Source of the DNA: an uncultured bacterium
Lineage (GTDB): Bacteria > Patescibacteriota > Minisyncoccia > Phycocordibacterales > UBA6065
Length of the DNA: 64,000 bases
Assembly (NCBI GenBank): GCA_963841935.1
Contig: CAWJEP010000005.1
Span: 164,003 to 228,002 of the forward strand
Direction of reading: 5' to 3'
In this document: one piece after another, positions 46,508-63,757 of the stretch
How positions within the stretch are numbered: position 1 is the stretch's first letter
Layout: every line of letters begins with the position of its first letter
Translations under genes and position numbers: made by a program
Notes under the pieces: generated by a model
What the model saw: only the letters and a program-made list of their open reading frames with translations
What the model was told of the DNA's origin: nothing
Database searches by the model: none

Positions 46508-49393
46508 CTAGTTTGGAACAATAAAATTTATTATTTTGTTTTTCACGTAAATTATTTTCGACGGTGTTTTTCCGGAGAGCCATTTCTCTAATTCCGACGC
46601 GGCAAAAGCGACTGCTTTTGCCGCGTCTTCGTCGGCATCCGCGGGCACCTCAATCACCGCGCGAACTTTGCCGTTTACTTGTACGGCAATATTTACTTTG
46701 GCGTCTTTGATAAACGCTTCATCCCACTTAGGCCAATCGGAAAGATGTATGGACTTTTTGTTTCCAAGCGAGCGCCATAATTCTTCGCTTATGTGTGGAG
46801 CGAAAGGCGCGAGAAGCTTCAAATAGCTCTCAAAATCGGCGCGAGCTATTGTCGGCACCTTGTCAAAAGCGTTTTGCAAAATCATAAGCGAACTTATCGC
46901 CGTGTTGAAACGCAAATTGGCGATGTCTTCGGTAACTTTCTTGATTGTTTTGTGTAAAAGCGTGTTTGTCGAAGAAAAAACAGCCTCTGGCGAGCGCGTA
47001 GTCTTAGCGGAGTCGGCGGAGCGCACAAGCGAGCCAGAGGCTGTTTTTTCGGAGACTTTCCACACGCGTTCGATGAACCGCCGCGAGCCAATCATACTGT
47101 CGGTGGACCATGCTATGGCTTGATCGAAAGGTCCCATAAACATTTCGTAAACGCGCAAAGTGTCGGCGCCGTATGTCGCGACTATGTCGTCGGGATTTAC
47201 GACATTGCCGAAACGTTTGGACATTTTTCTGCCGTCTTCGCCCATTATGAGTCCGACCGACTGCAATTTTTTAAACGGCTCGATTGTCGAGACAACGCCA
47301 ATGTCGTAAAGAAATTTGTGCCAAAAACGCGCGTATATGAGATGGCGTGTGGCGTGCTCGGCGCCGCCCACATAAAAGTCCACGCTGTTCCAATATTTTT
47401 CTTTTTTCGGAGAAACTAAAACCTTGGAGTCTTTCGGGTCCATATATCGCAAGTAATACCAAGAGCTCCCTGCCCATTGCGGCATCGTATTCGTCTCTCG
47501 TTTCATTCCTTTGAAATTGACCCATTTAGAAATCTCAGCCAAAGGCGACTCCCCCGTTCCCGTCGGTTCGTAATATTTCACTTTCGGCAATACCACCGGC
47601 AAATCTTTTTCCGAGACCGGCACTATTTTATTTCCGTTATGAAGCACCGGGATCGGCTCACCCCAATAGCGCTGCCGTGAGAAAACCCAATCTTTCAATT
47701 TGTATTTCGTCACCCATTTTCCGCCGGCTTTTTCGATGGCGTTCCTATCGGCAAACGGTTCGTCCTTTACGGGCAACTTGAACTTTTCCGCGAACGCCGC
47801 GTCTCTCTCGTCGTGTTTCGGCACTCCCATCACGGCTCCCGTGCCGTAATCGGCAAGGACATAGTCAGCAATCCAGACCGGCACCTCTTCCCCATTCACT
47901 GGATTTACCGCCTTGATTCCTTTCAATTCAACGCCGGTTTTTTCTTTCTTTGCGTCCGTGCGCTCAATTTCCGTTTTGATTCTCGCGGCGGCGACATATT
48001 TCACGACTTCTTTTTCGTTTTTCACTTCATGCAAAAGTTTTTCCACGAGCGGATGCTCCGGAGAAAGCACGACATACGTCACGCCGAAAAGCGTGTCTGG
48101 ACGAGTAGTGAAAACTTTTATTTTTTCCGTTTGATTTTTTATGGCGAAATCGATTTCCGCGCCTTCGCTTCGGCCAATCCAATTTCTCTGCGCCTCTTTT
48201 ATGGATTCCGGCCAATCAAGAAGCGGCTTCACAATATGGCGTGGCGCGCCGTCCATTACCAAATCCCAGCCGAGTTTCGAACCTTCGGCCGTCATTGCGT
48301 CACGAACTTTTTCCTCGGGAAGCCAAGTGACTTCGTGTTTGGCTTGTTCGTCAGCTACGACAGGAGCTTGTTCGCCGTCTTTTAGTTTGAAATAAAAAGA
48401 AGTGAAATGTCCGACGCGGTTTTCGTCTTTCGGCGGATGGAAAAATGTCGAGTGGTATTGACCGGCGCTTCTTTTCACGAGCGTCAGGTTTTTAAATCCC
48501 GTCTCTTCGAATATTTCCGCTCGCGCCGCTTCTTCCGGCGTCTGGCCTTTTTCGATGCCGCCAGTGATAGGAGTCGTCCAATCCACCTTTTTCCATTTGA
48601 GAACTATAAATTTCTTCTCCGACCAGTGTTCGACAAAAGCGCATATGGCGTTTCTCGGAACAAACGGCTTGTCCAATCTCACTTTGCCCGGAACATCGCT
48701 ATTCATATGGGTGATTCCAAATTCGCCATTCGGCAATGTCTCAAAAATGTCGCCGTTTGGCAAAACATTGGTGTCCAAGTCTTTCAAAAGTCTGTCGGCG
48801 TAATCGGTGATTTTCAAAACCCACTGGCGCATCGGTTTCTTCTCGACCGGCGTGCCGCAGCGCTCGCAGCGACCGTCTTCGACGTCTTCGTTCGCGAGGC
48901 CGGTCTTACACGACGGACACCAATTTATCGGCTCGTATGATTCGTAAGCCAAGCCTTTTTCCAAAAGTTTGAGAAAAATCCATTGCGTCCATTTGTAATA
49001 TTTCGGGTCGGTCGTGTTGATTTCCCTACTCCAATCATAATCAAAACCAATGATTTCCAGCTGTTTTTTGTACCTTGCGACATTTTTCGCCACGGCCACG
49101 ACCGGATTGGTCTTGGTCAAAATGGCGTAATTTTCCGCCGGCAAGCCGAAAGCGTCGAAACCCATTGGATGTAAGACGTTGTGCCCCTGCATCCTTTTCA
49201 TTCGGGAGACGATGTCGGTCGCGATGTAGCCCTTCGGATGGCCGACATGAAGACCTTCGCCCGAAGGATACGGAAACATATCGAGAACATAAAACTTGGG
49301 CTTGGGAGAATCATCCTTGGTCGCGTATATTTTCTTTTTCGCCCACCCCTTCTGCCACTTTTTTTCTATTTTCTTATGGTCGTATTGTTTCAT
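46508..49393 (-). CDS. leuS: Leucyl-tRNA synthetase carrying (i) an inserted NUDIX hydrolase domain and (ii) an in-frame palindromic-element insertion
   Basis: 'HVGHPKGY' HIGH motif, 'KMSKRFGN' and editing/anticodon domains. A Nudix box 'GGIEKGQTPEEAARAEIFEETGF' sits between '...LKDLD' and 'WPESIKEAQRNWIGRSEG'. Start is the ATG at 49393. Confidence 0.9.
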   Translation of the reverse strand: MKQYDHKKIEKKWQKGWAKKKIYATKDDSPKPKFYVLDMFPYPSGEGLHVGHPKGYIATDIVSRMKRMQGHNVLHPMGFDAFGLPAENYAILTKTNPVVAVAKNVARYKKQLEIIGFDYDWSREINTTDPKYYKWTQWIFLKLLEKGLAYESYEPINWCPSCKTGLANEDVEDGRCERCGTPVEKKPMRQWVLKITDYADRLLKDLDTNVLPNGDIFETLPNGEFGITHMNSDVPGKVRLDKPFVPRNAICAFVEHWSEKKFIVLKWKKVDWTTPITGGIEKGQTPEEAARAEIFEETGFKNLTLVKRSAGQYHSTFFHPPKDENRVGHFTSFYFKLKDGEQAPVVADEQAKHEVTWLPEEKVRDAMTAEGSKLGWDLVMDGAPRHIVKPLLDWPESIKEAQRNWIGRSEGAEIDFAIKNQTEKIKVFTTRPDTLFGVTYVVLSPEHPLVEKLLHEVKNEKEVVKYVAAARIKTEIERTDAKKEKTGVELKGIKAVNPVNGEEVPVWIADYVLADYGTGAVMGVPKHDERDAAFAEKFKLPVKDEPFADRNAIEKAGGKWVTKYKLKDWVFSRQRYWGEPIPVLHNGNKIVPVSEKDLPVVLPKVKYYEPTGTGESPLAEISKWVNFKGMKRETNTMPQWAGSSWYYLRYMDPKDSKVLVSPKKEKYWNSVDFYVGGAEHATRHLIYARFWHKFLYDIGVVSTIEPFKKLQSVGLIMGEDGRKMSKRFGNVVNPDDIVATYGADTLRVYEMFMGPFDQAIAWSTDSMIGSRRFIERVWKVSEKTASGSLVRSADSAKTTRSPEAVFSSTNTLLHKTIKKVTEDIANLRFNTAISSLMILQNAFDKVPTIARADFESYLKLLAPFAPHISEELWRSLGNKKSIHLSDWPKWDEAFIKDAKVNIAVQVNGKVRAVIEVPADADEDAAKAVAFAASELEKWLSGKTPSKIIYVKNKIINFIVPN
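46974..47050. repeat. Palindromic repeat element copy D inserted in frame within leuS (arms aaaaaacagcctctgg / ccagaggctgtttttt)
   Basis: Core gagcgcgtagtcttagcggagtcggcggagcgcacaagcgag. It is translated as ...KTASGSLVRSADSAKTTRSPEAVFS... in LeuRS. Confidence 0.8.
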
Positions 49394-49823
49394 TTTTAAA
49401 TTTGCGCAGAGCGAGATATATGAGTGCGATGAGAGCAATGCCGAGAATGACGACTCTCATCCAGCCGTAAGCCGACGACCAATATCTGAAAGACGCTATG
49501 ACAAGCGTGAGTATTCCGGAGAACGAAAGCGATGTGGAAACCACGGCATTTGTTTTCAAAAAGAAACTTAGGACGATGAGAATGACTCCGACGGCGACGA
49601 GAGTCATAAAGACTTCCGCCTGATAATTATTTTCCGCGGCGGTGTAATTATTTGAGCAAATGACATCGTTGGATTGCGGCGTAATAACGTCCGTTTGCGG
49701 GCAGAAATCGTTATATTGTGGCTCTTGGTAAATAAGCGAAAGAGAATAATTTATGAACATATTGGCGACGATGACGATGCCAATGATGAGCGACCATTTG
49801 AGAAGTTTTGATTGCTTTTGCAT
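49374..49823 (-). CDS. Hypothetical membrane protein (3-4 TM)
   Basis: Hydrophobic helices. It overlaps the leuS start by about 20 nt. Confidence 0.5.
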   Translation of the reverse strand: MQKQSKLLKWSLIIGIVIVANMFINYSLSLIYQEPQYNDFCPQTDVITPQSNDVICSNNYTAAENNYQAEVFMTLVAVGVILIVLSFFLKTNAVVSTSLSFSGILTLVIASFRYWSSAYGWMRVVILGIALIALIYLALRKFKNETIRP

Positions 49824-49945: not shown

Positions 49946-50191
49946 TTACATCTTCGGGGCCATTGCCGCGTCCGACGCGCAAGTCTTGCAATCCTTCTTG
50001 TGGGTAAAGACTAGGACAAGCGCCGAAACGCCGACTAGAACATAGACCAATGCCTCAAGCCACGGCCACGAGCCGAGGAGAAGATTGACCACGTTCCAGT
50101 TGCCGCCGAACCAATCTCCCAAACCGACGAGTCCCCAGTTGAGGCCGCCGATTATGAGAAGAATGAAGGCGATTTTATGAGTTGCTCTCAT
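49946..50191 (-). CDS. DUF378-family small membrane protein
   Basis: 'KIAFILLIIGGLNWGLVGL' is the DUF378 signature. Confidence 0.7.
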   Translation of the reverse strand: MRATHKIAFILLIIGGLNWGLVGLGDWFGGNWNVVNLLLGSWPWLEALVYVLVGVSALVLVFTHKKDCKTCASDAAMAPKM

Positions 50192-50316: not shown

Positions 50317-52062
50317 TTAGGAAAATCTCTGGTCTATATCGCCCATCTTTTTGTGAACGACTTTCTCTATGTCGCTGATGTTGTTCTTGAGGCGTTTAAT
50401 GAGCGCTTCTTCTTCGTTCGTAAGTGTCCGACGAGTTTTGGCGCGTTCCAAAAGTCGTATGTGGTCTTCAAGGTCTTCTTGAAGAACCTTAAACGAATTG
50501 TCAATGACGAATTCCGCTCCGTGTAATTCTTTGCGGAAATTTTTCTTCATCAGACGGAGTTTGTATGTCGCGAAAAAGACAAGAAATATAAGAAGGAATA
50601 TAAGAGCGAGGGTTGGAATGATGATGATTAGAGCATTCAAGGCGTACGAACCTATGACGAAGATAATGGGCGTGCTTACGATAACCACCACGCTTTGCGA
50701 AGGTAAACTTTTCGCCCCGCGACTGTCGGTCGCTACGGCATAGATAGTGTAAGCGCCGGATGTCAATGGTTTTTCAAATACCGCTGACCAACTGCCGCTC
50801 TTGTCCGAAGTAACTTGGTTGTCAATCGGAGTGTTGCTACCGCTTGTCGCAAAGACGTCAATGGTCACGTTGGGAAGAGCCGTTCCCGTGATTCTTACCA
50901 AATCGCCGTTTTTGGCCTGTTGCGGATACTCGGTAATGGAAGGAGTCGCAATGCCGACAACATTCACGTCAACGGAGGCGATGTCAAAGTTGCCGGCTCC
51001 GTCAAACACTTTACCAATAATGGAATGGTCGCCGGGAGCGAGAGGCCCCGTATTGTAGACACCGGTTCCGTCATCAACCCATTTGACCGGGTCGGCTTTG
51101 TCAATCTGAATCGTGTAATACGGCGTGCCGGAAATACTGTCCAAGGATGAAAGAGACAGCTGTACATTGGGGTCGGTCGGGTCGCTTCGCGGGATTTCTT
51201 TCATCACGAAAGATTCCGGCGGCGTGGTATCCACTTTTATGACGAAGTCCGATATGGCTCCCCAGCCATTCGCGTTTTCATCCTGTACGTGGAAATGCCA
51301 TACACCGGGTGTTATATCCGTTAGCTCTTTTGAACTTATGGCCGGCTTATAGACAACCGTCGGAACAGCATCCGACAACCTGCCGAAAAGAACCCGGGTG
51401 GCGATGGTGTCCGGTGAATTATTCCACGAGAGTTCGGCTGTCGTGCTCGTGTACCAATCGTTTTGGTTCGGATGCGTTGACGAAGTAATATTCGGAGCGG
51501 GTGGCGTGCCGGAAGAAGGAACAAAGGACGGCGTCGCCGGAACGACAACCTGACCGTTACTGGTTCCTAAAGTAAACGACGCGGAACCGATGGTCTTGAG
51601 AATGTTTGTCCCTTGTCCGTCATTGGCCAAAACCGACGCCGAAGAAAACGAGACTGGCGCCGAGCCGCCGGCGATAACTTTGAAATTGATAGTCGCGACG
51701 ACGGCGTCCGGACCTTGAAAACCGGGATTGGGAATTATACCCTCGAAGGAAACCGTGCCAGCGGCGTTTGAAAACGTCGGTTGGGTTACCCAAAGAGTCA
51801 CGACTGACCCAGTCGTTGAGACCGACGATACTTGCAGTTTATCCGTGGGAAAATTAATTAGACCGGAGACGGCGTTTATTGATTGGGCGGCGCTTGAAAC
51901 GACGACTTGAACCGAGAATGAATTGTCGAGATTGTATGTTCCACTTGACGGAGAAAGAATGAGAGAGTCGTCGGCGTAGACGACACTTGTTGACATTGCA
52001 AAAACCGCGAGAGAGACAACTAACGCGTAGAAAAACGCCGCGAATATATGAGGTACACGCAT
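50317..52062 (-). CDS. Surface protein: signal peptide, cohesin-like domain, Ig-like domains, C-terminal TM anchor and cytoplasmic coiled-coil tail
   Basis: The cohesin-like beta-sandwich 'LILSPSSGTYNLDNSFSVQVVVSS...ATINFKVIAGGSAPVSF' and a C-terminal 'IIIIPTLALIFLLIFLVFF' helix. Confidence 0.65.
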   Translation of the reverse strand: MRVPHIFAAFFYALVVSLAVFAMSTSVVYADDSLILSPSSGTYNLDNSFSVQVVVSSAAQSINAVSGLINFPTDKLQVSSVSTTGSVVTLWVTQPTFSNAAGTVSFEGIIPNPGFQGPDAVVATINFKVIAGGSAPVSFSSASVLANDGQGTNILKTIGSASFTLGTSNGQVVVPATPSFVPSSGTPPAPNITSSTHPNQNDWYTSTTAELSWNNSPDTIATRVLFGRLSDAVPTVVYKPAISSKELTDITPGVWHFHVQDENANGWGAISDFVIKVDTTPPESFVMKEIPRSDPTDPNVQLSLSSLDSISGTPYYTIQIDKADPVKWVDDGTGVYNTGPLAPGDHSIIGKVFDGAGNFDIASVDVNVVGIATPSITEYPQQAKNGDLVRITGTALPNVTIDVFATSGSNTPIDNQVTSDKSGSWSAVFEKPLTSGAYTIYAVATDSRGAKSLPSQSVVVIVSTPIIFVIGSYALNALIIIIPTLALIFLLIFLVFFATYKLRLMKKNFRKELHGAEFVIDNSFKVLQEDLEDHIRLLERAKTRRTLTNEEEALIKRLKNNISDIEKVVHKKMGDIDQRFS

Positions 52063-52895
52063 ATGCTTAATTCAAGAATTATTATAACAAAAATAATCAA
52101 GGCAAGTCGATGATGCGGTGCATAAACCATTTCAACGCGAATATTGCCTGATTTATCAACGGCTTTTACGTAAACCTTTTGGATGCCGGACTGATTGGAA
52201 AGCTCGTAAGGACTTGTTGCTATCTTCCAATCGCCCGCGCTCGGCGGAAAAAGGAATGTCTCGGCTATTTCAAAGTGGTCAATGCCGCTATCCTTATCCG
52301 TGGTATCAAACGAAACGAAATATTTTCCGCCAAATAAAGAATCGCTGCGCGAGATGAGCGGAGTAAACTGCTCCGGCGGGATAGTGTCGGAAATTTCCGC
52401 CCTCTGCGGATACTTGGCAACCGGAGCGATGGTGAAAGTAAGAGGTAAAGATGAAGCGGTTATTTCCGTACCAAGACCGTCGTTTTTCAAAAGAGTCATT
52501 TCGTCAACGGAAACCATGGCGTCGCCTTCCTTCTCGGCGCTAAACAGAAGAGTAAAGATTACTTGATGAGCTCCTTCCAGGCCGCCGGGAATGATTCCGG
52601 AGAAAGATATTTCGTTCGTCGTAGTCCCATATGTCGGACGTTCTATCCAAAGCGGCACGACGGAATTGTCGTATTCAATACCCTGGAAGGAAAGCGTGTC
52701 GGAGAAAGACACGGCACCGGAAAGAGCGTTCACCGAATCGTTGGCAGATGAGAAAGAAAGTGACGTGAGGAAACTGTCGCCTTGGTGAACTTGCGTTGCC
52801 GGCGCGTCAAAGCCGACAGACGCGGCGTAGATAAAGGCAAAAGGCGCCAAAAGAAAAATAAAAGTGAAAAATGAAATGTAAAAATTTTTATGCAT
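52020..52895 (-). CDS. Surface protein with cohesin-like domain and C-terminal TM anchor
   Basis: Signal peptide 'MHKNFYISFFTFIFLLAPFAFIYA', cohesin-like 'FLTSLSFSSANDSVNALSGAVSF...VIFTLLFSA' and a C-terminal TM 'LALIIFVIIILELSICVYLI'. Confidence 0.6.
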   Translation of the reverse strand: MHKNFYISFFTFIFLLAPFAFIYAASVGFDAPATQVHQGDSFLTSLSFSSANDSVNALSGAVSFSDTLSFQGIEYDNSVVPLWIERPTYGTTTNEISFSGIIPGGLEGAHQVIFTLLFSAEKEGDAMVSVDEMTLLKNDGLGTEITASSLPLTFTIAPVAKYPQRAEISDTIPPEQFTPLISRSDSLFGGKYFVSFDTTDKDSGIDHFEIAETFLFPPSAGDWKIATSPYELSNQSGIQKVYVKAVDKSGNIRVEMVYAPHHRLALIIFVIIILELSICVYLIYSRRFSTR

Positions 52896-52899
52896 AGTA

Positions 52900-54252
52900 T
52901 TATCCCGTCCAATGCGAGGCCATGATACTGAAGTCAACGAGGTCAACCTTGCCGTCACCGTTTAAGTCCGCCGACTTTGGCGGATTTGAACGATTAAACC
53001 AATACGCGAGAATGGAAAAATCAATGAGATTTACCTTACCGTCGCAGTTTATGTCTGATTTTATGCAAGCGGTGGAAACTGGTACTAAAACGTCTTGCGT
53101 GCCGACGGAGAAACCAACCGAGGCGCTAAACTCGCTTATATTGCCTTGAGTTGAGGATTTTGATTTCGTCGTGTGGTCGCCGTAGTCAAGCGGCGTGGTA
53201 TCAAGATTGTAAAGATAAATACCGCTTTTATCCGACGCGGTAACTCCAAAAAGGGTCTGGTCGGAATTTACTTGTATGGTAACCGTGCTTGAAGCGGATG
53301 TTTGCCCGAAAATAGCAAGATTGTCGCCTTTCTTAACCTCGCTTTTATCAACGGCAATGGTGGGAACGATGAAAATACTCCCAATGTTTGTCGTCACGCC
53401 GGATGTCACGCTTGCCGGAAACGTTAAGAGGTCGGAACGCCGTCCCGCGTTGTCGCTTCCATAAACGGAAAACAAATAATTTCCCGCCGGGACACCGCTT
53501 ACCTCTACTTGAAAATTAGCGTCGGCGTCGGCAATAGTGGAAGCGACAACTTGAGCATCTTCAAGAATCGTCACATCACTTGACGGATACGCCCGACCAG
53601 AAAAAATCACGTTGCCCATGCCGGAGGGAGTTGAATTATAATTTCCGCCGCCGCCCCCTCCACCACCTCCTCCGCCTCCACCTCCACCACCGCCTCCACC
53701 GCCGCCACCTGATGATGCCGGAGTCGCGGAGACCTCGGACGAAGTCGCGATAACATTGCTGAACGTGTCCAATACATCCACCACAAAATAGTAAGTCGTG
53801 CCATTGGAAAGACCTGTTTGCGCGTGAGAAAACGTGTTACCGACGGAAGTGAAAGAGTAAGGTCCGCCCGGCGTCGTCCCCTGCCCTATTGAATATCCGG
53901 AAATGCTAAGTCCGCTTCCGGCGGTTGCCGACGTCCAAGACAAAGATACTTGAGAATCGCCGGGAGTCGTCTGGACGACGGGCGAAGAAAAATAGGGAAA
54001 ATAAAGAAAACCACCTAGAACGTCAAAAGAGTTCCCCGTTGAGATGCCTATGGCCGCCTGGTCCATGGCTCCGAGCAATTCAAAACTATTGGACGAACTA
54101 TAATTCCCGGAGTTTATAATCGGATTACGGACTTGATAATCAGAGGAATAGAATGTTTGTGAATGAACGGGTTTTATGTTTAAAAAAAATGTGCCGGAAA
54201 TTAGCAATAAACAAATTAGAAAAAATTGTTTCTGTAAATTTTTAAAATACAT
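52900..54252 (-). CDS. Secreted protein with FN3/Ig-like domains, a (Gly)23 linker and a C-terminal type-I dockerin domain
   Basis: Two Ca-binding dockerin repeats 'DINCDGKVNLIDFSILAYWF' and 'DLNGDGKVDLVDFSIMASHW', a 23-Gly run and a signal peptide. Confidence 0.7.
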   Translation of the reverse strand: MYFKNLQKQFFLICLLLISGTFFLNIKPVHSQTFYSSDYQVRNPIINSGNYSSSNSFELLGAMDQAAIGISTGNSFDVLGGFLYFPYFSSPVVQTTPGDSQVSLSWTSATAGSGLSISGYSIGQGTTPGGPYSFTSVGNTFSHAQTGLSNGTTYYFVVDVLDTFSNVIATSSEVSATPASSGGGGGGGGGGGGGGGGGGGGGGNYNSTPSGMGNVIFSGRAYPSSDVTILEDAQVVASTIADADANFQVEVSGVPAGNYLFSVYGSDNAGRRSDLLTFPASVTSGVTTNIGSIFIVPTIAVDKSEVKKGDNLAIFGQTSASSTVTIQVNSDQTLFGVTASDKSGIYLYNLDTTPLDYGDHTTKSKSSTQGNISEFSASVGFSVGTQDVLVPVSTACIKSDINCDGKVNLIDFSILAYWFNRSNPPKSADLNGDGKVDLVDFSIMASHWTG

Positions 54253-54272
54253 GTTCTAAAAACCCATGTGGT

Positions 54273-55217
54273 TTATTGCGTCTGTCCGTCAGTGGTATCC
54301 GATGCGGTAGTTGTTTCAACAGTCGGCGCCGGCGTTTCGGTTGTGGATGTGGCCTCCAGCGTTGGCTCTTGAGTCGTATCCGAAGTTGACGTGGCGGTTT
54401 CCGAAGTCTCTGTTGAAGTTGTAGCCGTCGCGGTCGTGTAATCGGTTGCCGTTTCTGTAGTTGTCGCGGTTGCGGTTTCAGTTGTAGTTGCGGTTGAAGT
54501 TGTCGCGGTTGCGGTTGAAGTTGAAGTTACGGTTGAAGTTACCGTCGGTTCTTGCGCGGATTCCGTTTGAGATGAAGTCGGATTTGAAGTCTGGTTTACT
54601 TGGGATTCCGGGTTCGGAGTAGAAACTACGACCGATGTTTGCCTTGCTTCTACGGTAGCGGCAACTTCCGGAACGGCTTCCGGTATGACCGGATTATAAC
54701 CTTCTATGATTTCTGTTCTGGGATTCAAGAATTTTCCGATAAGGCCGGAATATTCCACCGTAACTACTTTTTGAGACGACCCTGCCGCTTCTTCCAGTTT
54801 CTGAACTCTTTTCAAAGAAGATAGTTCGTAGTTGATATTGTCACTCAACTCTTTTGCAACATAGAGCCCGAGGTCTTTATCGCCCAAAGCCGCCTTGCTT
54901 ACCGTCAAAGTTTTTTCTACCTGTTTTACCTGCCAGGCACCGTCAACAATTGCCAGCGTCTGATAGGAATAATCGGCATAATAATTTTTATCGTCATCGG
55001 TAATGGAATTTATCTTCAGATTGAAATTAAAGTTATCCAAATCGGTAGAAAGAATCAAACTATTATCCACGGAAGTCACTGCGGTTCTGCTGGAATATAT
55101 ACTATCGCGCGCCGTTGGGCTGGCGGCAAAAACTATTCCGGAACTAAAAAAACAAACGATAAAAACAATGGTAAAAGCGTTATTGTATTTTACGAAATTG
55201 AGAACTTTTTTATACAT
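54273..55217 (-). CDS. Secreted protein with a Thr/Ser-rich mucin-like C-terminal tail
   Basis: Signal peptide, then about 100 residues dominated by T/S/A/E ('TSTVTSTSTATATTSTATTTETATATTTETAT...'). Confidence 0.6.
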   Translation of the reverse strand: MYKKVLNFVKYNNAFTIVFIVCFFSSGIVFAASPTARDSIYSSRTAVTSVDNSLILSTDLDNFNFNLKINSITDDDKNYYADYSYQTLAIVDGAWQVKQVEKTLTVSKAALGDKDLGLYVAKELSDNINYELSSLKRVQKLEEAAGSSQKVVTVEYSGLIGKFLNPRTEIIEGYNPVIPEAVPEVAATVEARQTSVVVSTPNPESQVNQTSNPTSSQTESAQEPTVTSTVTSTSTATATTSTATTTETATATTTETATDYTTATATTSTETSETATSTSDTTQEPTLEATSTTETPAPTVETTTASDTTDGQTQ

Positions 55218-55259: not shown

Positions 55260-58200
55260 TTAACAATTCCAAATCACTCCGTTTATATCCATAATCGACG
55301 CGGCCGGCATTCCATTGACTGTTTTTATTGAAGTTTTATCGAGATTGTTTATTGTTTTTAGTTCCACGACGCAAACAGATGGGCTGACCGAAGGTGAGAT
55401 ACTCGGTGACGGGCTGACGCTTGGACTGGGAGAAACGCTCGGTGAAATTGACGGTGATGGACTGATTGATGGTGAAGCTGATGGACTTGGAGAAGTGCTC
55501 GGTGAGAGTGACGGTGAAAGTGACGACAAAGGTGACGGTGATATGGATGGCGATATCGATGGAGATTCGGATGGAGAGATAGATGGACTAAGAGACGGCG
55601 AAGGGCTGACGCTCGGTGACAAAGATGGGCTCGGACTGACAGATGGAGATACCGAGGGTGAAAGGCTTGGGCCGATGGACGGCGAAAGTGACGGCGAAAG
55701 TGATGGGCTGATACTCGGCGAGAGACTTGGCGAGAGAGACGGTGATGGAGAAACTGACGGGGAAACTGAAGGACTTAAACTTGGACTAAGAGATGGTGAG
55801 GGCGAAACCGAAGGAGAAATGCTCGGAGAAAGCGATGGTGAAAGTGATGGGCTCGGACTAACTGAAGGTGAAATGCTCGGCGAGAGAGACGGGCTGAGTG
55901 ACGGCGACAAACTCGGCGAAAGTGAAGGACTTGGAGATACGGACGGCGAAACGGACGGAGAAATACTCGGCGAGAGAGATGAACCAGCTGAAGGAGAAAC
56001 CGAGGGAGAGATACTTGGCGAAAGTGACGGACTTGGGGAAACGGACGGCGAAACCGAAGGTGAAATGCTTGGCGAGAGTGATGGGCTTGGCGAAACCGAC
56101 GGCGAAATACTCGGTGAAAGTGAAGGAGAAAGTGACGGAGACAAACTCGGCGAGAGAGACGGCGATGGAGAAACTGACGGACTAACTGAAGGACTTAAAG
56201 ATGGCGAGAGCGAGGGACTTGGTGAAGTCGAAGGTGAAACGCTTGGGCTAAGCGAAGGTGAAAGAGACGGCGAGAGACTCGGCGATAGACTTGGGCTCGG
56301 TGAAACTGAGGGTGAAACCGACGGAGAAATACTTGGCGAGAGTGAAGGGCTTGGACTAACCGATGGTGAAATACTTGGTGAAAGAGATGGAGACAAACTT
56401 GGCGAGAGACTCGGCGAAATGCTCGGGCTCGGTGAGACCGAAGGGCTGACTGATGGTGAGATGCTCGGTGAGAGTGATGGCGAAGGTGAAACCGATGGTG
56501 AGATCGATGGTGAGAGAGATGGACTAAGTGATGGAGAAAGTGATGGCGATATCGAAGGGCTTGGACTGACTGATGGTGAGACCGAAGGACTCAAACTCGG
56601 TGACAGAGACGGTGATGGCGAAACCGACGGCGAAATACTCGGTGAAAGTGAAGGAGAAAGTGACGGAGACAAACTTGGCGAGAGAGACGGCGATGGAGAA
56701 ACTGACGGACTAACTGAAGGACTTAAAGATGGCGAGAGCGAGGGACTTGGTGAAGTCGAAGGTGAAACGCTTGGGCTAAGCGAAGGTGAAAGAGACGGCG
56801 AGAGACTCGGCGATAGACTTGGGCTCGGTGAAACTGAGGGTGAAACCGACGGAGAAATACTTGGCGAGAGTGAAGGGCTTGGACTAACCGATGGTGAAAT
56901 ACTTGGTGAAAGAGATGGAGACAAACTTGGCGAGAGACTCGGCGAAATGCTCGGGCTCGGTGAGACCGAAGGGCTGACTGATGGTGAGATGCTCGGTGAG
57001 AGTGATGGCGAAGGTGAAACCGATGGTGAGATCGATGGTGAGAGAGATGGACTAAGTGATGGAGAAAGTGATGGCGATATCGAAGGGCTTGGACTGACTG
57101 ATGGTGAGACCGAAGGACTCAAACTCGGTGACAGAGACGGTGATGGCGAAACCGACGGCGAAATACTCGGTGAAAGTGAAGGAGAAAGTGACGGAGACAA
57201 ACTTGGCGAGAGAGACGGCGATGGAGAAACTGACGGACTAACTGAAGGACTTAAAGATGGCGAGAGCGAGGGACTTGGTGAAGTCGAAGGTGAAACGCTT
57301 GGGCTAAGCGAAGGTGAAAGAGACGGCGAGAGACTCGGCGATAGACTTGGGCTCGGTGAAACTGAGGGTGAAACCGACGGAGAAATACTTGGCGAGAGTG
57401 AAGGGCTTGGACTAACCGATGGTGAAATACTTGGTGAAAGAGATGGAGACAAACTTGGCGAGAGACTCGGCGAAATGCTCGGGCTCGGTGAGACCGAAGG
57501 GCTGACTGATGGTGAGATGCTCGGTGAGAGTGATGGCGAAGGTGAAACCGATGGTGAGATCGATGGTGAGAGAGATGGACTAAGTGATGGAGAAAGTGAT
57601 GGCGATATCGAAGGGCTTGGACTGACTGATGGTGAGACCGAAGGACTCAAACTCGGTGACAGAGACGGTGATGGCGAAACCGACGGCGAAATACTCGGTG
57701 AAAGTGAAGGAGAAAGTGACGGAGACAAACTTGGCGAGAGAGACGGCGATGGAGAAACTGACGGACTAACTGAAGGACTTAAAGATGGCGAGAGCGAGGG
57801 ACTTGGTGAAGTCGAAGGTGAAACGCTTGGGCTAAGCGAAGGTGAAAGAGACGGCGAGAGACTCGGCGATAGACTTGGGCTCGGTGAAACTGAGGGTGAA
57901 ACCGACGGAGAAATACTTGGCGAGAGTGAAGGGCTTGGACTAACCGATGGTGAAATACTTGGTGAAAGAGATGGAGACAAACTTGGCGAGAGACTCGGCG
58001 AAATGCTCGGGCTCGGTGAGACCGAAGGGCTGACTGATGGTGAGATGCTCGGTGAGAGTGATGGCGAAGGTGAAACCGATGGTGAGATCGATGGTGAGAG
58101 AGATGGACTAAGTGATGGAGAAAGTGATGGCGATATCGAAGGGCTTGGACTGACTGATGGTGAGACCGAAGGACTCAAACTCGGTGACAGAGACGGTGAT

Positions 58201-60012
58201 GGCGAAACCGACGGCGAAATACTCGGTGAAAGTGAAGGAGAAAGTGACGGAGACAAACTTGGCGAGAGAGACGGCGATGGAGAAACTGACGGACTAACTG
58301 AAGGACTTAAAGATGGCGAGAGCGAGGGACTTGGTGAAGTCGAAGGTGAAACGCTTGGGCTAAGCGAAGGTGAAAGAGACGGCGAGAGACTCGGCGAAAT
58401 GCTCGGGCTCGGTGAGACCGAAGGGCTGACTGATGGTGAGATGCTCGGTGAGAGTGATGGCGAAGGTGAAACCGATGGTGAGATCGATGGTGAGAGAGAT
58501 GGACTAAGTGATGGAGAAAGTGATGGCGATATCGAAGGGCTTGGACTGACTGATGGTGAGACCGAAGGACTCAAACTCGGTGACAGAGACGGTGATGGCG
58601 AAACCGACGGCGAAATACTCGGTGAAAGTGAAGGAGAAAGTGACGGAGACAAACTCGGCGAGAGAGACGGCGATGGAGAAACTGACGGACTAACTGAAGG
58701 ACTTAAAGATGGCGAGAGACTCGGCGATAGACTTGGGCTCGGTGAAACTGACGGACTGACTGAAGGACTTAAAGATGGCGAGAGCGAGGGACTTGGTGAA
58801 GTCGAAGGTGAAATGCTCGGCGAGAGAGAGGGCTGAAAGTGACGGCGAGAGACTCGGCGATAGACTTGGGCTCGGTGAAACTGAGGGTGAAACCGACGGA
58901 GAAATACTTGGCGAGAGTGAAGGGCTTGGACTAACCGATGGTGAAATACTTGGTGAAAGAGATGGAGACAAACTTGGCGAGAGACTCGGCGAAATGCTCG
59001 GGCTCGGTGAGACCGAAGGGCTGACTGATGGTGAGATGCTCGGTGAGAGTGATGGCGAAGGTGAAACCGATGGTGAGATCGATGGTGAGAGAGATGGACT
59101 AAGTGATGGAGAAAGTGATGGCGATATCGAAGGGCTTGGACTGACTGATGGTGAGACCGAAGGACTCAAACTCGGTGACAGAGACGGTGATGGCGAAACC
59201 GACGGCGAAATACTCGGTGAAAGTGAAGGAGAAAGTGACGGAGACAAACTCGGTGAAAGACTCGGCGAAAGACTTGGACTTGGAGATACGGAGGGTGAAA
59301 TGGACGGAGAAAGAGATGGAGAAATACTCGGACTAAGCGATGGACTAAGTGACGAAATAAACCATGTGATTTGAATGACTCCGTTTCCTCCCTGTCCTCC
59401 TGTGTTACCGTTTCTTCCCGACCCTCCACCACCGCCTCCATAGTTTGCTCCGTTAGCGCCAGTTGCGTTTACTCCTCCAGCTCCTCCGTTTCCGGCTGGA
59501 GTTCCCCCATTTGCTCCACCAGCGTGAGTTCCCGACCCATTCGCTCCGGTTCCTCCGTTTCCAGTGTTCCCGGCTCCTCCACCTCCTCCACCTCCGTTGT
59601 TGCTACCTCCGTTTCCTCCGTTTCCTCCGTTGTGTGACGTCCAAGTGACGACTCCGTTACCGGTTGTGTTGCTATTACCCCCGACTCCACGTGCGCCACC
59701 GGCGTTGCCTCCACCACCTCCACCGGCCGCCTCGATGATAAGAGTGTTGCCCGCAGTATTGAAAAATGTGGTTCCGCCAGCGCCGCCGGATGCGTTTGCG
59801 GTTCGTGTTCCGCCGTTTCCGGCGGAATAATTAAAAGCGATGTTCGGACCAGATATGGTTATAGTTGTCTGAGCCCAAGCGCCACCACCACCACCACTAC
59901 CGTTGTTGCCTCCACCACCTCCACCTCCACCTCCAATAACCTGAACAACCGCGGAAGTTGCTGTGGTGCTATTCCATGTACCGCTACCTGTAAGATTTGA
60001 TGTTGTCGCCAT
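55260..60012 (-). CDS. Giant (about 1580 aa) protein: Gly/Asn-rich N-terminal domain followed by more than 1100 aa of (S-P-S-L/I/V)n low-complexity repeat. Interrupted by one frameshift at about 58836-58850.
   Basis: ORF 58690-60012 starts with a non-repetitive Gly-rich domain and runs in frame into SPSx repeats. ORF 55260-58652 continues the same repeat. The repeat consensus gains +1 nt at about 58845. All neighbours are minus-strand. The plus-strand alternative (acidic GExxGE repeat, ORF 55315-58836) cannot be excluded. Confidence 0.55.
55400..59340. repeat. Tandem-repeat DNA: 12-nt (4-codon) units organised into 528-bp higher-order repeats (at least 4 near-identical copies at 56101-58212, plus partial copies)
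   Basis: 'accgaaggactcaaactcggtgacagagacggtgatggcgaaaccgacggcgaaatactc' recurs at 56581, 57109, 57637, 58165 (period 528) and again at 58561 (period 396). Confidence 0.9.
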
Positions 60013-60042: not shown

Positions 60043-61236
60043 CTACCGACTATCAAATGCTTTCCTTGTTTTATCTATAGACCATATATTTCCCGCTTCA
60101 TTTTCGCTGTATATATCAAATTCGAAAAGCGCGTCTTTGACACTCTGTCTATCAAAGTCATGTCCGCAAAGAATTTTTTTACACTTCGGATACCACGCGT
60201 TTAGGTCTCTTAAGACGGACTCTTTGTCATGAGCGCCGTCGATAAAGACCATGTCTATGGAGTTATCTTCAAAATGCTTCGCCGCCTCGGCGCTATCCAT
60301 TTTTAATATTTCGACGTTTTTGAAACCCGACATATTCCGTCTCAAATCCGATTCGGCGTCGGGATTAAATTTTGATTTCTGAGAGAAATTATCTACAAGT
60401 GTCACTTTCCCGGGACATCCGCTGGCGATGGCGTGACCGCTTTTTCCTTTCCAGCTTCCAATTTCAACGACCGATTTCATTTTTTTGGCCGTGAGATAAA
60501 GCCAGGTCATTTCCGACAAGAGCAAATACCCTTCTATTTTGGGGTCTTTATAATCGCTGATTTCCCAATTAGCCAAAGTTTTTATCATTCCTTTAACTTT
60601 TTGCTTGGTAGGTATTACATATTCATGCCACAGGTAGTTTCCTCCGGCGTTTATTTCCTGGGTCAGTTGTGTGACGGTTTTGAATTTCAACCCGTATTTG
60701 GCTATGTTTCTTGAAAGAGTGTAATCGTCAATGAGATGTTCCCGCGTAACAACTGTGTTTAACTCTTTCTGAATGGGAAAAATATTTCCAAGCGCCTCTT
60801 CGTAGGGAATATCAAGAGGGTGCCAGAGGTCAAGGCACCAATCCGAGGCAATGGTGAACCAGTTGCAAGAACCGATATTCCTGCCGTCACGGATGAAATA
60901 TTTGTCATAACGCGAACGGTTATTGGCCATGTCACAACCGTTATGAACCACGGTGTCTTTCTTGATAAAATTCGTCACATCAAAAAAATCCGGGTGAACC
61001 AGAGCGTCCGAGTCGATATAAATATTCCAATCGTTGCCCATTTTTTTGCCGAGCTCGTAAATTTGCAATTTTTCGTAAACCGGCGGCATATTTGGAAATT
61101 TGCGCTCGGAAATTATGTGGAAATCCGCTCCGATTTTCTCCGCGTAGCGTTTTATCAAGGGATAAGTAAGCTCTGTTATTTCCGGAGCGTAATTATCGAC
61201 GTTCAAAGTGAAAATTGTTTTTTTAAGTTTTGACAT
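60043..61236 (-). CDS. Putative GT-A-fold glycosyltransferase (DxD) fused to a C-terminal class-I SAM-dependent O-methyltransferase domain
   Basis: N-terminal half is paralogous to the next two genes ('KKTIFTLNVDNY...YEKLQIYELG...IDSD'). C-terminal 'VVEIGSWKGKSG...IDMVFIDGAHDKESV' is an O-MTase (Methyltransf_24-like) motif. Confidence 0.5.
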   Translation of the reverse strand: MSKLKKTIFTLNVDNYAPEITELTYPLIKRYAEKIGADFHIISERKFPNMPPVYEKLQIYELGKKMGNDWNIYIDSDALVHPDFFDVTNFIKKDTVVHNGCDMANNRSRYDKYFIRDGRNIGSCNWFTIASDWCLDLWHPLDIPYEEALGNIFPIQKELNTVVTREHLIDDYTLSRNIAKYGLKFKTVTQLTQEINAGGNYLWHEYVIPTKQKVKGMIKTLANWEISDYKDPKIEGYLLLSEMTWLYLTAKKMKSVVEIGSWKGKSGHAIASGCPGKVTLVDNFSQKSKFNPDAESDLRRNMSGFKNVEILKMDSAEAAKHFEDNSIDMVFIDGAHDKESVLRDLNAWYPKCKKILCGHDFDRQSVKDALFEFDIYSENEAGNIWSIDKTRKAFDSR

Positions 61237-62791: not shown

Positions 62792-63757
62792 TCATTTGAT
62801 TTTCTTGATTTTATCCAAATCTTCCTGTTTCCAACCATTTACCGGCCAGAACTTTTCCAAGAGCCAGGACATGGGATAGATTTGTTTCGGCCAATTATTA
62901 TCAAAAAATAAATTCCAGACTTTCTTTTTTGTCTTTTGAACTTCGCTCTCGTGTTGCGGATATGGGAACCCGAAATCCCCGCCTTGTGTCCTGAACATAT
63001 GGGCATACCAAGTTTTATGATTGACGAGTACCCTGCCACCGGAGAGCCATGTCTTTACGGCCACTTCTATTCCCTGATTGCCCCAGTTGCCGAGTTTCTC
63101 GTCGCAGATATTGAGCTCCCAGTATTTTTCGCGAGTCAGCATAAAGCATGAACCTTGGAGCGACAGCGTTTCGGTTAAACCCGTTTCTTCCAAATCTTTT
63201 TTATATCCCGGTCTTTTGGTGTAGTCGTTGAAATATTGAAAATGCGGTTCGGCGTCGAAACTGTACGAATTGCTTTGAGGCCTTTCCTTGCCGACCCATA
63301 TCATTTTTCTCCTCATGTGTTTTTCGTCTCCGCATTGTTCGCATTTCTTCGGTGTCGGACCTTGATACTTTTTCCAACCGCACTTGTAGCATTTCCAATC
63401 AAAGGCCCAGAGATTTCGCATGGTCGGCACCATGGTCACGTTGTCCCCGACTTTCTTGAAAGCTTCTATCATTTTGCGGTCAAAACCTTTGTCAAAAGCG
63501 CAGTGAGCGTCGACTTTCATCACGTATTTGGCCTTTGAAAGTTTGCAGGCGAGATTGGCCGTGGCTCTTTGACCAATGGATTCCGGGACATATATGACGT
63601 TTACCCTCTCGTTTTGGAGCACGGGCGGGTCGGCCCACTTCCCATCCAAGACGACTATGACCTCCGTATCGGCTTCTATGTTGGCCAAAATGTCCTCTAT
63701 GGTCCTTTGGAGGAACATTTCATTTCTGGCGGGTATAAGTATGGATAATTCTTTCAT
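62792..63757 (-). CDS. Family-2 glycosyltransferase with an inserted CxxC...CxxC zinc-ribbon
   Basis: 'LSILIPARNE...VVLDGKWAD...DAHCAF' is a GT2 signature. 'CYKCGWKKYQGPTPKKCEQCGDE' is an insertion. Confidence 0.7.
   Translation of the reverse strand: MKELSILIPARNEMFLQRTIEDILANIEADTEVIVVLDGKWADPPVLQNERVNVIYVPESIGQRATANLACKLSKAKYVMKVDAHCAFDKGFDRKMIEAFKKVGDNVTMVPTMRNLWAFDWKCYKCGWKKYQGPTPKKCEQCGDEKHMRRKMIWVGKERPQSNSYSFDAEPHFQYFNDYTKRPGYKKDLEETGLTETLSLQGSCFMLTREKYWELNICDEKLGNWGNQGIEVAVKTWLSGGRVLVNHKTWYAHMFRTQGGDFGFPYPQHESEVQKTKKKVWNLFFDNNWPKQIYPMSWLLEKFWPVNGWKQEDLDKIKKIK

Follow-up and report, generated by a model that had tools for sequence, protein, structure and literature searches.

A putative non-cellulosomal cohesin-dockerin surface scaffold encoded by a conserved three-gene cluster of Patescibacteria

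Four genes, here designated A to D, follow one another on the minus strand of the window, i.e. the whole 64-kb stretch of DNA that was analysed. Their open reading frames occupy positions 50317..52062 (gene A, 581 aa), 52020..52895 (gene B, 291 aa when counted from the ATG at 52895), 52900..54252 (gene C, 450 aa) and 54273..55217 (gene D, 314 aa), and the original prediction of four consecutive minus-strand genes was thus borne out. D and C are spaced by 20 nt, the stop of C at 52900 is followed by the probable ATG of B at 52895 (a GTG at 52958 represents an upstream extension of the B frame), and the 3' end of B extends 43 nt into the start of A. No minus-strand terminator-like sites were detected by scanning the intergenic gaps, a single weak site being located within the coding sequence of B, and the promoter and terminator scan of the locus gave no signal above background. 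Genes A, B, C and D constitute a tight minus-strand operon encoding exported proteins. The signal peptides and transmembrane (TM) segments predicted in these proteins rest on a hydropathy heuristic. According to it, the N-termini of A, B, C and D contain a positive charge followed by a hydrophobic stretch of 19-30 residues and a small-residue site (VYA/DD, IYA/AS, VHS/QT and VFA/AS among the four), in agreement with the expectation that all four carry signal peptides. A second hydrophobic segment was present near the C-terminus of A (aa 452-506) and of B (aa 256-288), and no further segment of this kind was found in C or D. Hence, the C-terminal TM anchors proposed for both cohesin proteins are indicated by hydropathy in A and B, and the full-length structural model of A agrees with this.

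Protein C is composed of a signal peptide, a small N-terminal domain and an FN3 domain (together the "head"), then 22 consecutive glycines, two Big_6 Ig domains and a C-terminal dockerin; the Big_6 domains were assigned by Pfam and the FN3 domain was deduced from homologues. The dockerin module (52903..53064, minus strand, aa 397-450) comprises two Ca-loop/helix segments, with HWTG at the extreme C-terminus. It was matched by PF00404 at aa 399-445 with a score of 37.4 bits, the Pfam cut-off being 22.9 (E 2.9e-9). Dockerin segments have a length of about 22 residues, in which a 12-residue EF-hand-like Ca2+ loop of the pattern D-x-[ND]-x-[DN]-G-x-[IV]-[DN]-x-x-D is followed by a helix. C contains two such segments in tandem, DINCDGKVNLID-FSILAYWF and DLNGDGKVDLVD-FSIMASHW, and DINCDGKVNLID and DLNGDGKVDLVD were the only matches to the loop pattern in the six frames of the whole window. 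The prediction of two canonical Ca-binding dockerin repeats at the C-terminus therefore holds: the Pfam score exceeds the cut-off and both loops are present. About 70 orthologues of C carry the dockerin module at the extreme C-terminus, nearly all of them with both Ca loops and both helices kept, and PF00404 matched 59 of 62 orthologues. The poly-glycine tether (53644..53709, minus strand, aa 182-203) was found as a pattern match in the translation and, at the same coordinates, as a TRF array, and its glycine columns were at least 90% conserved among the 62 orthologues. The head (aa 1-181) had only FN3-type relatives, which gave no functional clue, and it varies by lineage, being a small beta domain plus FN3 here and a Cys-rich module elsewhere. 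The domains recorded in the 62 C-family proteins were Ig, FN3 and dockerin only, with rare DUF4215 or FG-GAP, and no catalytic or carbohydrate-binding domain (glycoside hydrolase, lyase, esterase, CBM) was detected in any of them.

The AF2 model of full-length A (pLDDT 89.6) displayed a signal peptide, a cohesin, a Pro/Thr/Ser linker, four Ig/FN3-like domains, a TM helix and a cytoplasmic helical hairpin. The cohesin module (51568..51966, minus strand, aa 33-165) precedes a stalk of four Ig/FN3-like domains (50674..51495, minus strand, aa 190-463), which were delimited by the beta-sandwich strands of the model; Pfam gave a sub-threshold Big_13 match at aa 391-455, and Foldseek matched the full-length model to multi-FN3/Ig chains. 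The TM helix (50545..50667, minus strand, about aa 466-506) was placed according to the hydropathy of aa 452-506 and the helix that runs continuously from aa 466 in the model, and the cytoplasmic hairpin (50320..50544, minus strand, aa 507-581) according to the modelled helices 466-544 and 549-580. The hairpin contains the conserved motif K-R-x-L-T-x-E-E, and across 57 A orthologues E551 was invariant and L547 and E566 were nearly invariant. A profile search of PDB sequences detected a weak similarity of the hairpin to the ATP-synthase b-subunit stalk, and Pfam scans of A and of its orthologues revealed no recognised signalling or binding domain in the tail.

PF00963 did not match A or B of the window even at E<=1, the NCBIfam scans likewise yielded no cohesin, and no cohesin was retrieved when PDB sequences were searched with single sequences or with a profile of 57 A-family sequences. 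Sequence-only methods were therefore insufficient for these two proteins. When aa 28-172 of A were modelled alone with AF2 (pLDDT 94.1, pTM 0.87), the top 48 Foldseek matches of the model in the PDB were all cohesins, with E-values down to 2.2e-9 and TM-scores of 0.55-0.77, and a CLIPPER domain and pilin/adhesin domains appeared at lower scores. The Foldseek search with the full-length A model had returned only multi-FN3/Ig chains, the cohesin signal being swamped, whereas the single-domain model recovered cohesins. The domain is a nine-stranded flattened beta-sandwich (jelly-roll) that superposes best on solved cohesins, and as modelled its cohesin fold is unambiguous. Moreover, PF00963 directly matched 25 of the 57 A orthologues (best 7.9e-8), and some A orthologues bear the NCBI name "cohesin domain-containing protein". 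Thus, the presence of cohesin domains in A and B was supported by the fold of A and by the matches of the orthologues, but single-sequence domain searches failed to recover them. The cohesins of A and B are judged to be very divergent because both proteins fail the Pfam cohesin model and the A-family profile finds no cohesin in the PDB, and they might have changed their ligand.

Protein B is shorter and consists of a signal peptide, a cohesin (52425..52826, minus strand), one Ig-like domain and a C-terminal TM helix (52032..52130, minus strand; aa 256-288 of 291 by hydropathy). The A-family cohesin HMM matched B at E 2e-26, and the N-terminal domain of B shared 33% identity with that of A over 156 aa (E 2e-17), by which comparison the two domains are homologous. 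The motifs NA..G, LW, F.G..P.G and NDG.GT are common to both cohesins, and PF00963 directly matched 11 of 69 B orthologues (best 3.2e-7). Protein D begins with a signal peptide or anchor; its N-terminal domain of 170 aa is conserved but found no match in the Pfam, NCBIfam or PDB profile searches, and the composition of its 115-aa tail (42% Thr, 13% Ser) confirms the Thr/Ser-rich protein anticipated at the locus. The general anatomy foreseen for the cluster, with two type-I membrane proteins that have an N-terminal cohesin, one secreted protein that terminates in a dockerin and one Thr-rich protein, was accordingly recovered.

The order C->B->A, seen on one strand in the window, was found in 61 of the 63 genome loci that had enough upstream sequence to be informative and that represent many Patescibacteria lineages: B was directly upstream of A in 62 and C was upstream of B in 61 of them. 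The overlap of B and A was usual among the loci, and natural B-A fusions exist, the membrane topology of which is consistent. At least 572 species genomes contain a relative of A. More than 300 full-length A orthologues, each of about 570-600 aa, and 4,926 A-family representatives at E<=1e-30 were retrieved. The names attached to members of the A family are mostly those of Parcubacteria/Paceibacteria, ABY1-type and Microgenomates lineages. Across classes A keeps a near-constant length and 35-47% identity, the cytoplasmic tail included, a pattern that suits a host-specific adhesin no better than it does a housekeeping structure of the envelope. The informatively named homologues of all four proteins were nearly all from Patescibacteria, which identifies the organism as a CPR bacterium, in line with the CPR-like lifestyle anticipated. 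A single dockerin ORF was present in 74 of 75 loci and two cohesin ORFs in 70 of 88, with 2-3 cohesin ORFs per locus; the 64-kb window contains one dockerin ORF, and neither A nor B has more than one cohesin. The genes downstream of the cluster differ between loci, and no conserved cytoplasmic gene adjoins it. In one related locus a gene for a 1308-aa NosD/beta-helix protein, which has no dockerin, is inserted between C and B. The persistence of the C-B-A order constitutes strong comparative evidence that the genes for the dockerin and for both cohesins, co-inherited in a fixed arrangement, work together. Since the same gene order occurs in hundreds of CPR species, the trio is probably a core, uncharacterised cell-surface structure of CPR and not a cellulose-degrading machine.

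The idea of a four-gene module needs to be narrowed, as C, B and A form the conserved core but D is lineage-restricted and absent from the 80 genome loci examined. The homologues of D (n=178, with identities of up to 82%; 59-82% among the 120 listed) carry the names Zambryski-, Wolfe- and Paceibacterota, and within its own lineage D adjoins a C homologue, directly upstream, in five cases out of five. No relation was found between D and the accessory proteins located upstream of C in other lineages. D is thus an accessory gene restricted to Paceibacteria and lies outside the conserved core.

Pairwise distances were used to compare the two cohesins as candidate partners of the dockerin. The dockerin (mean distance 0.37) and the A cohesin (0.42) were the slowest-evolving parts, followed by the rest of A (0.62) and the B cohesin (0.66). 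In the mirror-tree comparison, the dockerin distances gave a partial r of 0.24 with the A cohesin versus 0.09 with the B cohesin, a weak and descriptive signal. These values weakly favour the A cohesin over that of B as the putative partner of the dockerin. In type I cohesins the dockerin-binding face of solved complexes, e.g. 1OHZ, is the 8-3-6-5 sheet. The residues that are conserved in the A as well as in the B cohesin family fall on the predicted strands 3, 5 and 6 and in the 8-9 region, and appear to coincide with the putative dockerin-binding face.

Peer et al. (2009, FEMS Microbiol Lett 291:1; ref. 42 of PMC10066038 and ref. 19 of PMC11452385) surveyed non-cellulosomal cohesin and dockerin modules. 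Compared to such modules, e.g. the Archaeoglobus fulgidus cohesin (PDB 2XDH), the cluster described here is a fixed three-gene operon in which a dockerin gene precedes two genes for TM-anchored cohesins, its order is conserved across hundreds of species of one phylum, and both the cytoplasmic tail and the poly-Gly tether are conserved. No published description of a dockerin and two TM-anchored cohesins in fixed order was found in the literature searched. The anchoring scaffoldins of cellulosomes, such as OlpA/OlpC/SdbA of Clostridium thermocellum and ScaC of Acetivibrio cellulolyticus (PDB 3UL4, 4DH2, 4UYP), have cohesins to which identity was 10-23%; unlike them, A and B are anchored by a C-terminal TM helix in place of SLH domains or sortase, the presumably captured protein C has, besides its dockerin, Ig/FN3 domains only, and neither a multi-cohesin primary scaffoldin nor a CBM is present. 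The toxin-complex modules of Clostridium perfringens (GH33, GH84; PDB 2VO8, 2JH2, 2W1N, 2O4E) and the amylosome of Ruminococcus bromii (PMC4611034) would resemble the present cluster in that cohesin and dockerin assemble extracellular proteins outside cellulose degradation, and the C. perfringens modules and the R. bromii Sca5 cohesins were among the structural matches of the A cohesin. However, what is linked there are enzymes, either with one another or with scaffoldins, whereas here no enzyme is involved and the cohesins are membrane-anchored. Another dockerin-domain surface protein of Patescibacteria, SEML1_0315 of the epibiotic saccharibacterium Southlakia epibionticum, was scored as essential in Tn-seq, and host glycans were suggested by the authors as its target (Wang et al. 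2023, PMC10633639). We rejected SEML1_0315 as an orthologue of C, as it differs in size (927 aa) and, unlike C, has no cohesin neighbours, being encoded between a hydrolase gene and a tRNA gene.

With moderate confidence we favour a non-cellulosomal cohesin-dockerin surface scaffold, the core of which consists of C, B and A, three genes that Patescibacteria have conserved as a module by vertical descent. All four proteins would be exported by the predicted Sec-type N-terminal signals, and one C-terminal helix each would keep A and B in the cytoplasmic membrane. A would carry its cohesin far from the membrane on the Pro/Thr linker and four Ig-like domains, and B its more divergent cohesin on one Ig-like domain. 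C, which has no predicted anchor of its own and ends in a canonical, internally symmetric two-loop dockerin, would after export bind Ca2+ and plug into a cohesin, most likely that of A and less clearly that of B. It would thus be tethered non-covalently to the cell, and its variable head would be displayed on the flexible poly-glycine tether above the two Ig domains. We infer coupled amounts of B and A, which probably act as a pair, because the genes overlap and natural fusions exist. D may be a mucin-like partner specific to Paceibacteria and is probably glycosylated. The likeliest purpose would be a conserved outer-surface structure for cell-cell contact or envelope architecture.

Polysaccharide degradation is an unlikely purpose, and it appears highly improbable that the cluster is a small counterpart of a cellulosome or amylosome, on which enzymes for polysaccharide breakdown are gathered at the cell surface. 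Cellulosomes are defined by their cohesin and dockerin modules, the best structural matches were cellulosomal cohesins, and one related locus has the beta-helix protein between C and B; however, that protein lacks a dockerin, each of A and B has a single cohesin, the anchors are TM helices and not SLH domains or sortase signals, and neither a multi-cohesin scaffoldin nor dockerin-bearing CAZymes with a CBM occur at the locus. The sole dockerin protein of the window and the lack of catalytic or carbohydrate-binding domains among the 62 C orthologues also uphold the suggestion that the cluster is not for cellulose.

A different objection is that the cohesin-like and dockerin-like folds do not bind each other and that the genes co-travel as parts of one surface structure, the cohesin serving for adhesion in the manner of an Ig domain or for binding glycans, and the dockerin, stabilised by Ca2+, for binding wall polymers or another protein. 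Such an arrangement would be compatible with the divergence of A and B beyond detection by Pfam or PDB sequences, with two cohesins per dockerin, with the much faster evolution of the B cohesin than of the dockerin, and with the structural relatedness, at lower scores, of CLIPPER and pilin/adhesin domains. We nevertheless regard it as unlikely: complete Ca loops and helices are kept in nearly all dockerin orthologues, no part of A is more conserved than its cohesin, synteny of dockerin and cohesin genes is near-perfect, and to our knowledge the partner of the dockerin is a cohesin in all systems studied so far. Less probable still is a trans-membrane coupling complex, in which occupancy or load of the A cohesin would be transmitted through the single helix to the cytoplasmic hairpin, and the hairpin would recruit a cytoplasmic partner (e.g. 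cytoskeletal, division or signalling) that links surface or host contact to the cell interior. The conservation of the A tail in length and motif (KRxLTxEE, E551) across classes, its modelled geometry of a long helix continuous with the TM segment plus a return helix, and the b-subunit resemblance point in this direction, but the tail has no recognised signalling or binding domain and the variable downstream genes include no conserved cytoplasmic neighbour; coupling is, moreover, compatible with the surface scaffold and does not exclude it. A broader joint reading, which we consider possible but rather doubtful, is that C-B-A represents an ancient, vertically inherited and nearly universal envelope organelle of much of Patescibacteria, as conserved as their type IV pili, and takes the form of a membrane-spanning cohesin-dockerin complex in which the variable C head on its glycine tether contacts the host or builds a surface layer and the A hairpin couples this contact to the cell interior.

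Host attachment and interaction of CPR/Patescibacteria are largely unknown, and few conserved surface structures apart from type IV pili have been identified. C-B-A would be a conserved three-protein surface module made of well-understood plug-and-socket domains, and would show cohesin-dockerin pairs in a role other than the assembly of enzymes, thereby widening their known uses. If the envelope-organelle reading is true, it would be the first case in which an entire phylum employs a cohesin-dockerin pair as a core structure of its cell biology and not as an enzyme-assembly device, and would provide a testable handle on the attachment of ultra-small episymbionts. If the pair is orthogonal to the clostridial pairs, its divergent but structurally canonical modules could become new protein-engineering parts. 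The predictions that can be tested include EDTA-reversible, Ca2+-dependent binding, the location of C at the surface and loss-of-function phenotypes. No description of the cluster was found in the literature searched on cohesins and dockerins in Patescibacteria, CPR and Parcubacteria and on Ca. Microsyncoccus. The cluster is carried by a cultured relative, Ca. Microsyncoccus archaeolyticus.

The genes D, C, B and A were found as four consecutive minus-strand ORFs within 50317-55217: D (54273-55217; 314 aa), which encodes a Thr-rich mucin-like protein, C (52900-54252; 450 aa), which encodes the dockerin protein, and the two cohesin genes B (52020-52958; a probable ATG at 52895 gives 291 aa) and A (50317-52062; 581 aa). 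Their spacing is operon-like, with a gap of 20 nt between D and C, 4 nt from the C stop codon to the B ATG and an overlap of 43 nt between B and A. A terminator scan revealed no minus-strand terminator-like site in the intergenic gaps of D-C-B-A, and one weak site was located within the B coding sequence. Directly downstream of A lies a gene for an 81-aa DUF378 small membrane protein (49946-50191, minus strand), which also adjoins A on a short Logan contig carrying an identical A and is not kept 3' of A in three other loci inspected.

The dockerin of C was recognised directly. The protein matched the Pfam model Dockerin_1 (PF00404) at aa 399-445 with 37.4 bits (curated cut-off 22.9; E 2.9e-9), and both calcium loops quoted in the original prediction, DINCDGKVNLID and DLNGDGKVDLVD, were present at its C-terminus. 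When the six-frame translation of the 64-kb window was searched with the dockerin loop pattern, these two loops were the only matches, and C was likewise the sole match in the window to an HMM built from the dockerins of its own family. The two segments of the C dockerin are nearly identical (VNLIDFSILA and VDLVDFSIMA), in which they resemble the type I dockerins with a dual binding mode.

The cohesins were less readily recovered. Neither A nor B matched the cohesin model PF00963 in the Pfam scan even at E ≤ 1, the NCBIfam scan of the two proteins gave nothing relevant, and no cohesin was found among PDB sequences by A alone or by a 57-sequence profile of the A family. With the complete A model as query, Foldseek returned only multi-FN3/Ig chains. 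However, when aa 28-172 of A were modelled alone (pLDDT 94.1, pTM 0.87), the top 48 Foldseek matches in the PDB were exclusively cohesins, with types I, II and III all represented (E 2.2e-9 to 2e-4; TM 0.55-0.77), including C. perfringens modules and the Archaeoglobus fulgidus cohesin 2XDH, a non-cellulosomal example. The N-terminal domain of B is 33% identical to that of A over 156 aa (E 2e-17; E 2e-26 with the family HMM), and PF00963 was matched directly by 25 of 57 A orthologues (best 7.9e-8) and 11 of 69 B orthologues (best 3.2e-7). Thus, although Pfam fails on the window proteins themselves, the cohesin assignment stands because of the fold match of A, the homology between B and A and the PF00963 matches of the orthologues; both proteins are predicted to carry very divergent members of the family.

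Hydropathy profiles revealed at the N-termini of all four proteins a charged start, a hydrophobic core of 19-30 residues and a cleavage-like site of small residues. One further hydrophobic segment was present near the C-terminus of A and of B, and no second segment was detected in C or D. By this hydropathy heuristic, which is not a trained predictor, all four proteins are predicted to have export signals, A and B to be membrane-anchored, and C, which has a complete dockerin, to be anchorless. In the full-length model of A (pLDDT 89.6) an N-terminal signal helix is followed by the cohesin (aa 33-165), a disordered Pro/Thr/Ser linker (aa 168-179, reaching about 190), four Ig/FN3-like sandwiches (aa 190-463), a helix running from aa 466 through the membrane and into the cytoplasm to 544, and a return helix (aa 549-580). 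The cytoplasmic hairpin contains a conserved K-R-x-L-T-x-E-E motif, and E551 is invariant in 57 orthologues. B is a shortened paralogue of A, in which the cohesin is followed by one Ig-like domain, which has a DTxPPExF motif in common with A, and a transmembrane helix; the cohesin of A would sit distally on a long stalk and that of B on a short one. In C the signal peptide precedes a small N-terminal domain rich in beta structure and an FN3 domain recognised via homologues; 22 consecutive glycines (aa 182-203), two Big_6 Ig domains identified by Pfam and the dockerin come next. D starts with a signal or anchor, followed by a 170-aa domain for which no Pfam or PDB relative was found and a 115-aa tail (42% Thr, 13% Ser). 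The anatomy originally proposed, with anchored cohesin proteins, an exported dockerin protein and a Thr-rich protein, thus agrees with hydropathy, Pfam, fold and composition, and synteny strengthens the original interpretation.

A word-indexed search yielded more than 300 full-length relatives of A that hardly vary in length (about 570-600 aa) and carry names from Parcubacteria, Uhr-, Falkow-, Wildermuth- and Jorgensenbacteria and Ca. Microsyncoccus archaeolyticus. An exhaustive search at E ≤ 1e-30 returned 4,926 representatives of 50%-identity clusters, a count that takes in some giant multi-Ig proteins, the best 150 being nearly all full-length. When one genome per GTDB species was scanned, a relative of A occurred in at least 572 genomes, of which those listed included Parcu-/Paceibacteria, Portnoy-, Colwell-, Wolfe-, Komeili-, Magasanik-, Doudna-, Dojka- and Sungbacteria and Microgenomates, together with a few MAG records bearing provisional non-CPR labels. 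In 63 loci the sequence extended more than 2.5 kb beyond A on the upstream side; a B homologue lay immediately upstream of A in 62 of them, and in 61 a C homologue also lay upstream of B. In nearly all of the C orthologues (approximately 70) this dockerin forms the extreme C-terminus, usually closing with ...YWTG, and 59 of 62 matched PF00404. The poly-glycine run is conserved among them, and the region N-terminal to it differs by lineage (FN3-type in the window, Cys-rich DUF4215-type in Microsyncoccus). Ca. Microsyncoccus archaeolyticus, which has been cultured, has the cluster in its genome.

A single dockerin ORF was present in 74 of 75 loci and two cohesin ORFs in 70 of 88, with a third cohesin gene in ten. 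Third cohesin proteins are encoded in L085 (11310-13343), L086 (10419-11579), L088 (9356-10705), L030 and L071, and locus L067 (15472-18503) has, 5 kb downstream, a second pair made up of a dockerin (803 aa) and a cohesin; the C-B-A module can therefore expand. In the loci compared B and A usually overlap, and natural B-A fusions of 866-901 aa were detected (database proteins P0245, P0248 and P0252; also L042, 6871-9471), in which B (signal, cohesin, Ig, TM) is followed by a signal-like segment of A and then all of A. Such a fusion would form a topologically consistent three-pass arrangement with the A signal peptide as the second membrane-spanning segment. The fusions and the overlapping genes argue that B and A act together in fixed proportion.

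D had been counted in the module in the original prediction, but no relative of it was found in 80 genome loci. Its family comprises 178 proteins with identities as high as 82% (for the 120 listed, 59-82%), with members named from Zambryski-, Wolfe- and Paceibacterota, and in all four contigs examined the D homologue lies directly upstream of the C homologue. D-bearing contigs sometimes have extra genes between C and B, encoding a third cohesin protein or a NosD/beta-helix protein (1308 aa) without a dockerin. Where two genomes share only 28-39% identity in A, the N-terminal domain of D still reaches 66-67%, making D the most constrained cluster protein within its lineage. Many other lineages have a signal/beta-sandwich/TM protein and a large surface protein ahead of the trio instead (L002, 5878-8110; L003, 1249-8102; about 20 other loci). 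The large proteins have a C-terminal domain in common; two unrelated types were distinguished, with no informative Pfam match. All of these may be additional, lineage-specific components of this surface structure. Since the upstream partners differ by lineage and D is absent from the 80 loci, the conserved core consists of C, B and A, with D as a lineage-specific accessory. GT2 glycosyltransferase and Methyltransf_24 genes occur upstream of the cluster in the window (60043-61236 and 62792-63757, minus strand), and GT2, Methyltransf_24 and TOD1_MUCI70 genes upstream of the D homologues in the Paceibacteria contigs L085, L086 and L088. This neighbourhood fits a putative glycosylation of the Thr-rich tail of D, and the GT2/Methyltransf_24 genes may together form a cassette that glycosylates the Thr-rich protein or the wall.

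Judged by the established behaviour of these families, the C dockerin would fold around two Ca2+ ions and plug into a cohesin, which would fix C non-covalently to the cell and leave its variable head exposed on a flexible glycine tether. Docking of C on A and/or B is somewhat probable. The dockerin and the A cohesin are the slowest-evolving segments (mean pairwise distance 0.37 and 0.42, compared to 0.62 for the rest of A and 0.66 for the B cohesin), and dockerin divergence tracks the A cohesin (partial r 0.24) better than the B cohesin (0.09), which weakly favours the A cohesin as the candidate partner. The positions that both cohesin families keep conserved (NA..G, LW, F.G..P.G and NDG.GT) map to predicted strands 3, 5, 6 and the 8-9 region, the dockerin-binding face in solved complexes.

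A cellulosome was rejected, in line with the original suggestion that the module plausibly has a role other than cellulose degradation, because no enzyme or CBM domain was found in 62 C orthologues, each protein has a single cohesin, and the anchoring is by TM segments. In an episymbiont, attachment to the host is a plausible role. A housekeeping envelope structure would fit at least as well, since the conservation of A is high and uniform, the cytoplasmic tail included. Many bacteria and archaea are known to carry non-cellulosomal cohesin and dockerin modules (Peer et al. 2009, as cited in PMC10066038), and such modules also occur in the toxin complexes of C. perfringens and in the amylosome of R. 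bromii (PMC4611034). Dockerin domains of Omnitrophota giant proteins are mentioned in passing as possible adhesins (PMC10066038). An essential Southlakia protein has a dockerin domain (PMC10633639) but differs from C in not lying within a dockerin/cohesin/cohesin cluster. In the literature on Patescibacteria we found no description of a conserved dockerin/cohesin/cohesin operon. The domains and presumably their binding chemistry are known; the novelty lies in the architecture, the phyletic conservation and the context.

Two other features of the window were recorded. Immediately upstream of D (55260-60012, minus strand), a glycine-rich-domain protein (PF21722, 34.7 bits; ORF 58690-60012) with no obvious signal peptide continues as a (SPSxSPSxSPS)n repeat of about 1,300 residues (ORF 55260-58652). 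Near 58,700 the frame changes within tandem repeats of 132, 264 and 396 nt, which implies either a single frameshifted gene of about 1,570 aa or a slip in the assembly; on the opposite strand, a mirror ORF of 1,173 aa is probably not coding. The leucyl-tRNA synthetase (976 aa; 46508-49438, minus strand) contains an inserted NUDIX hydrolase domain (aa 286-382; PF00293, 45.9 bits; cut-off 21.1) that separates the first part of the catalytic core from the editing domain, a fusion that is unusual for an aminoacyl-tRNA synthetase.
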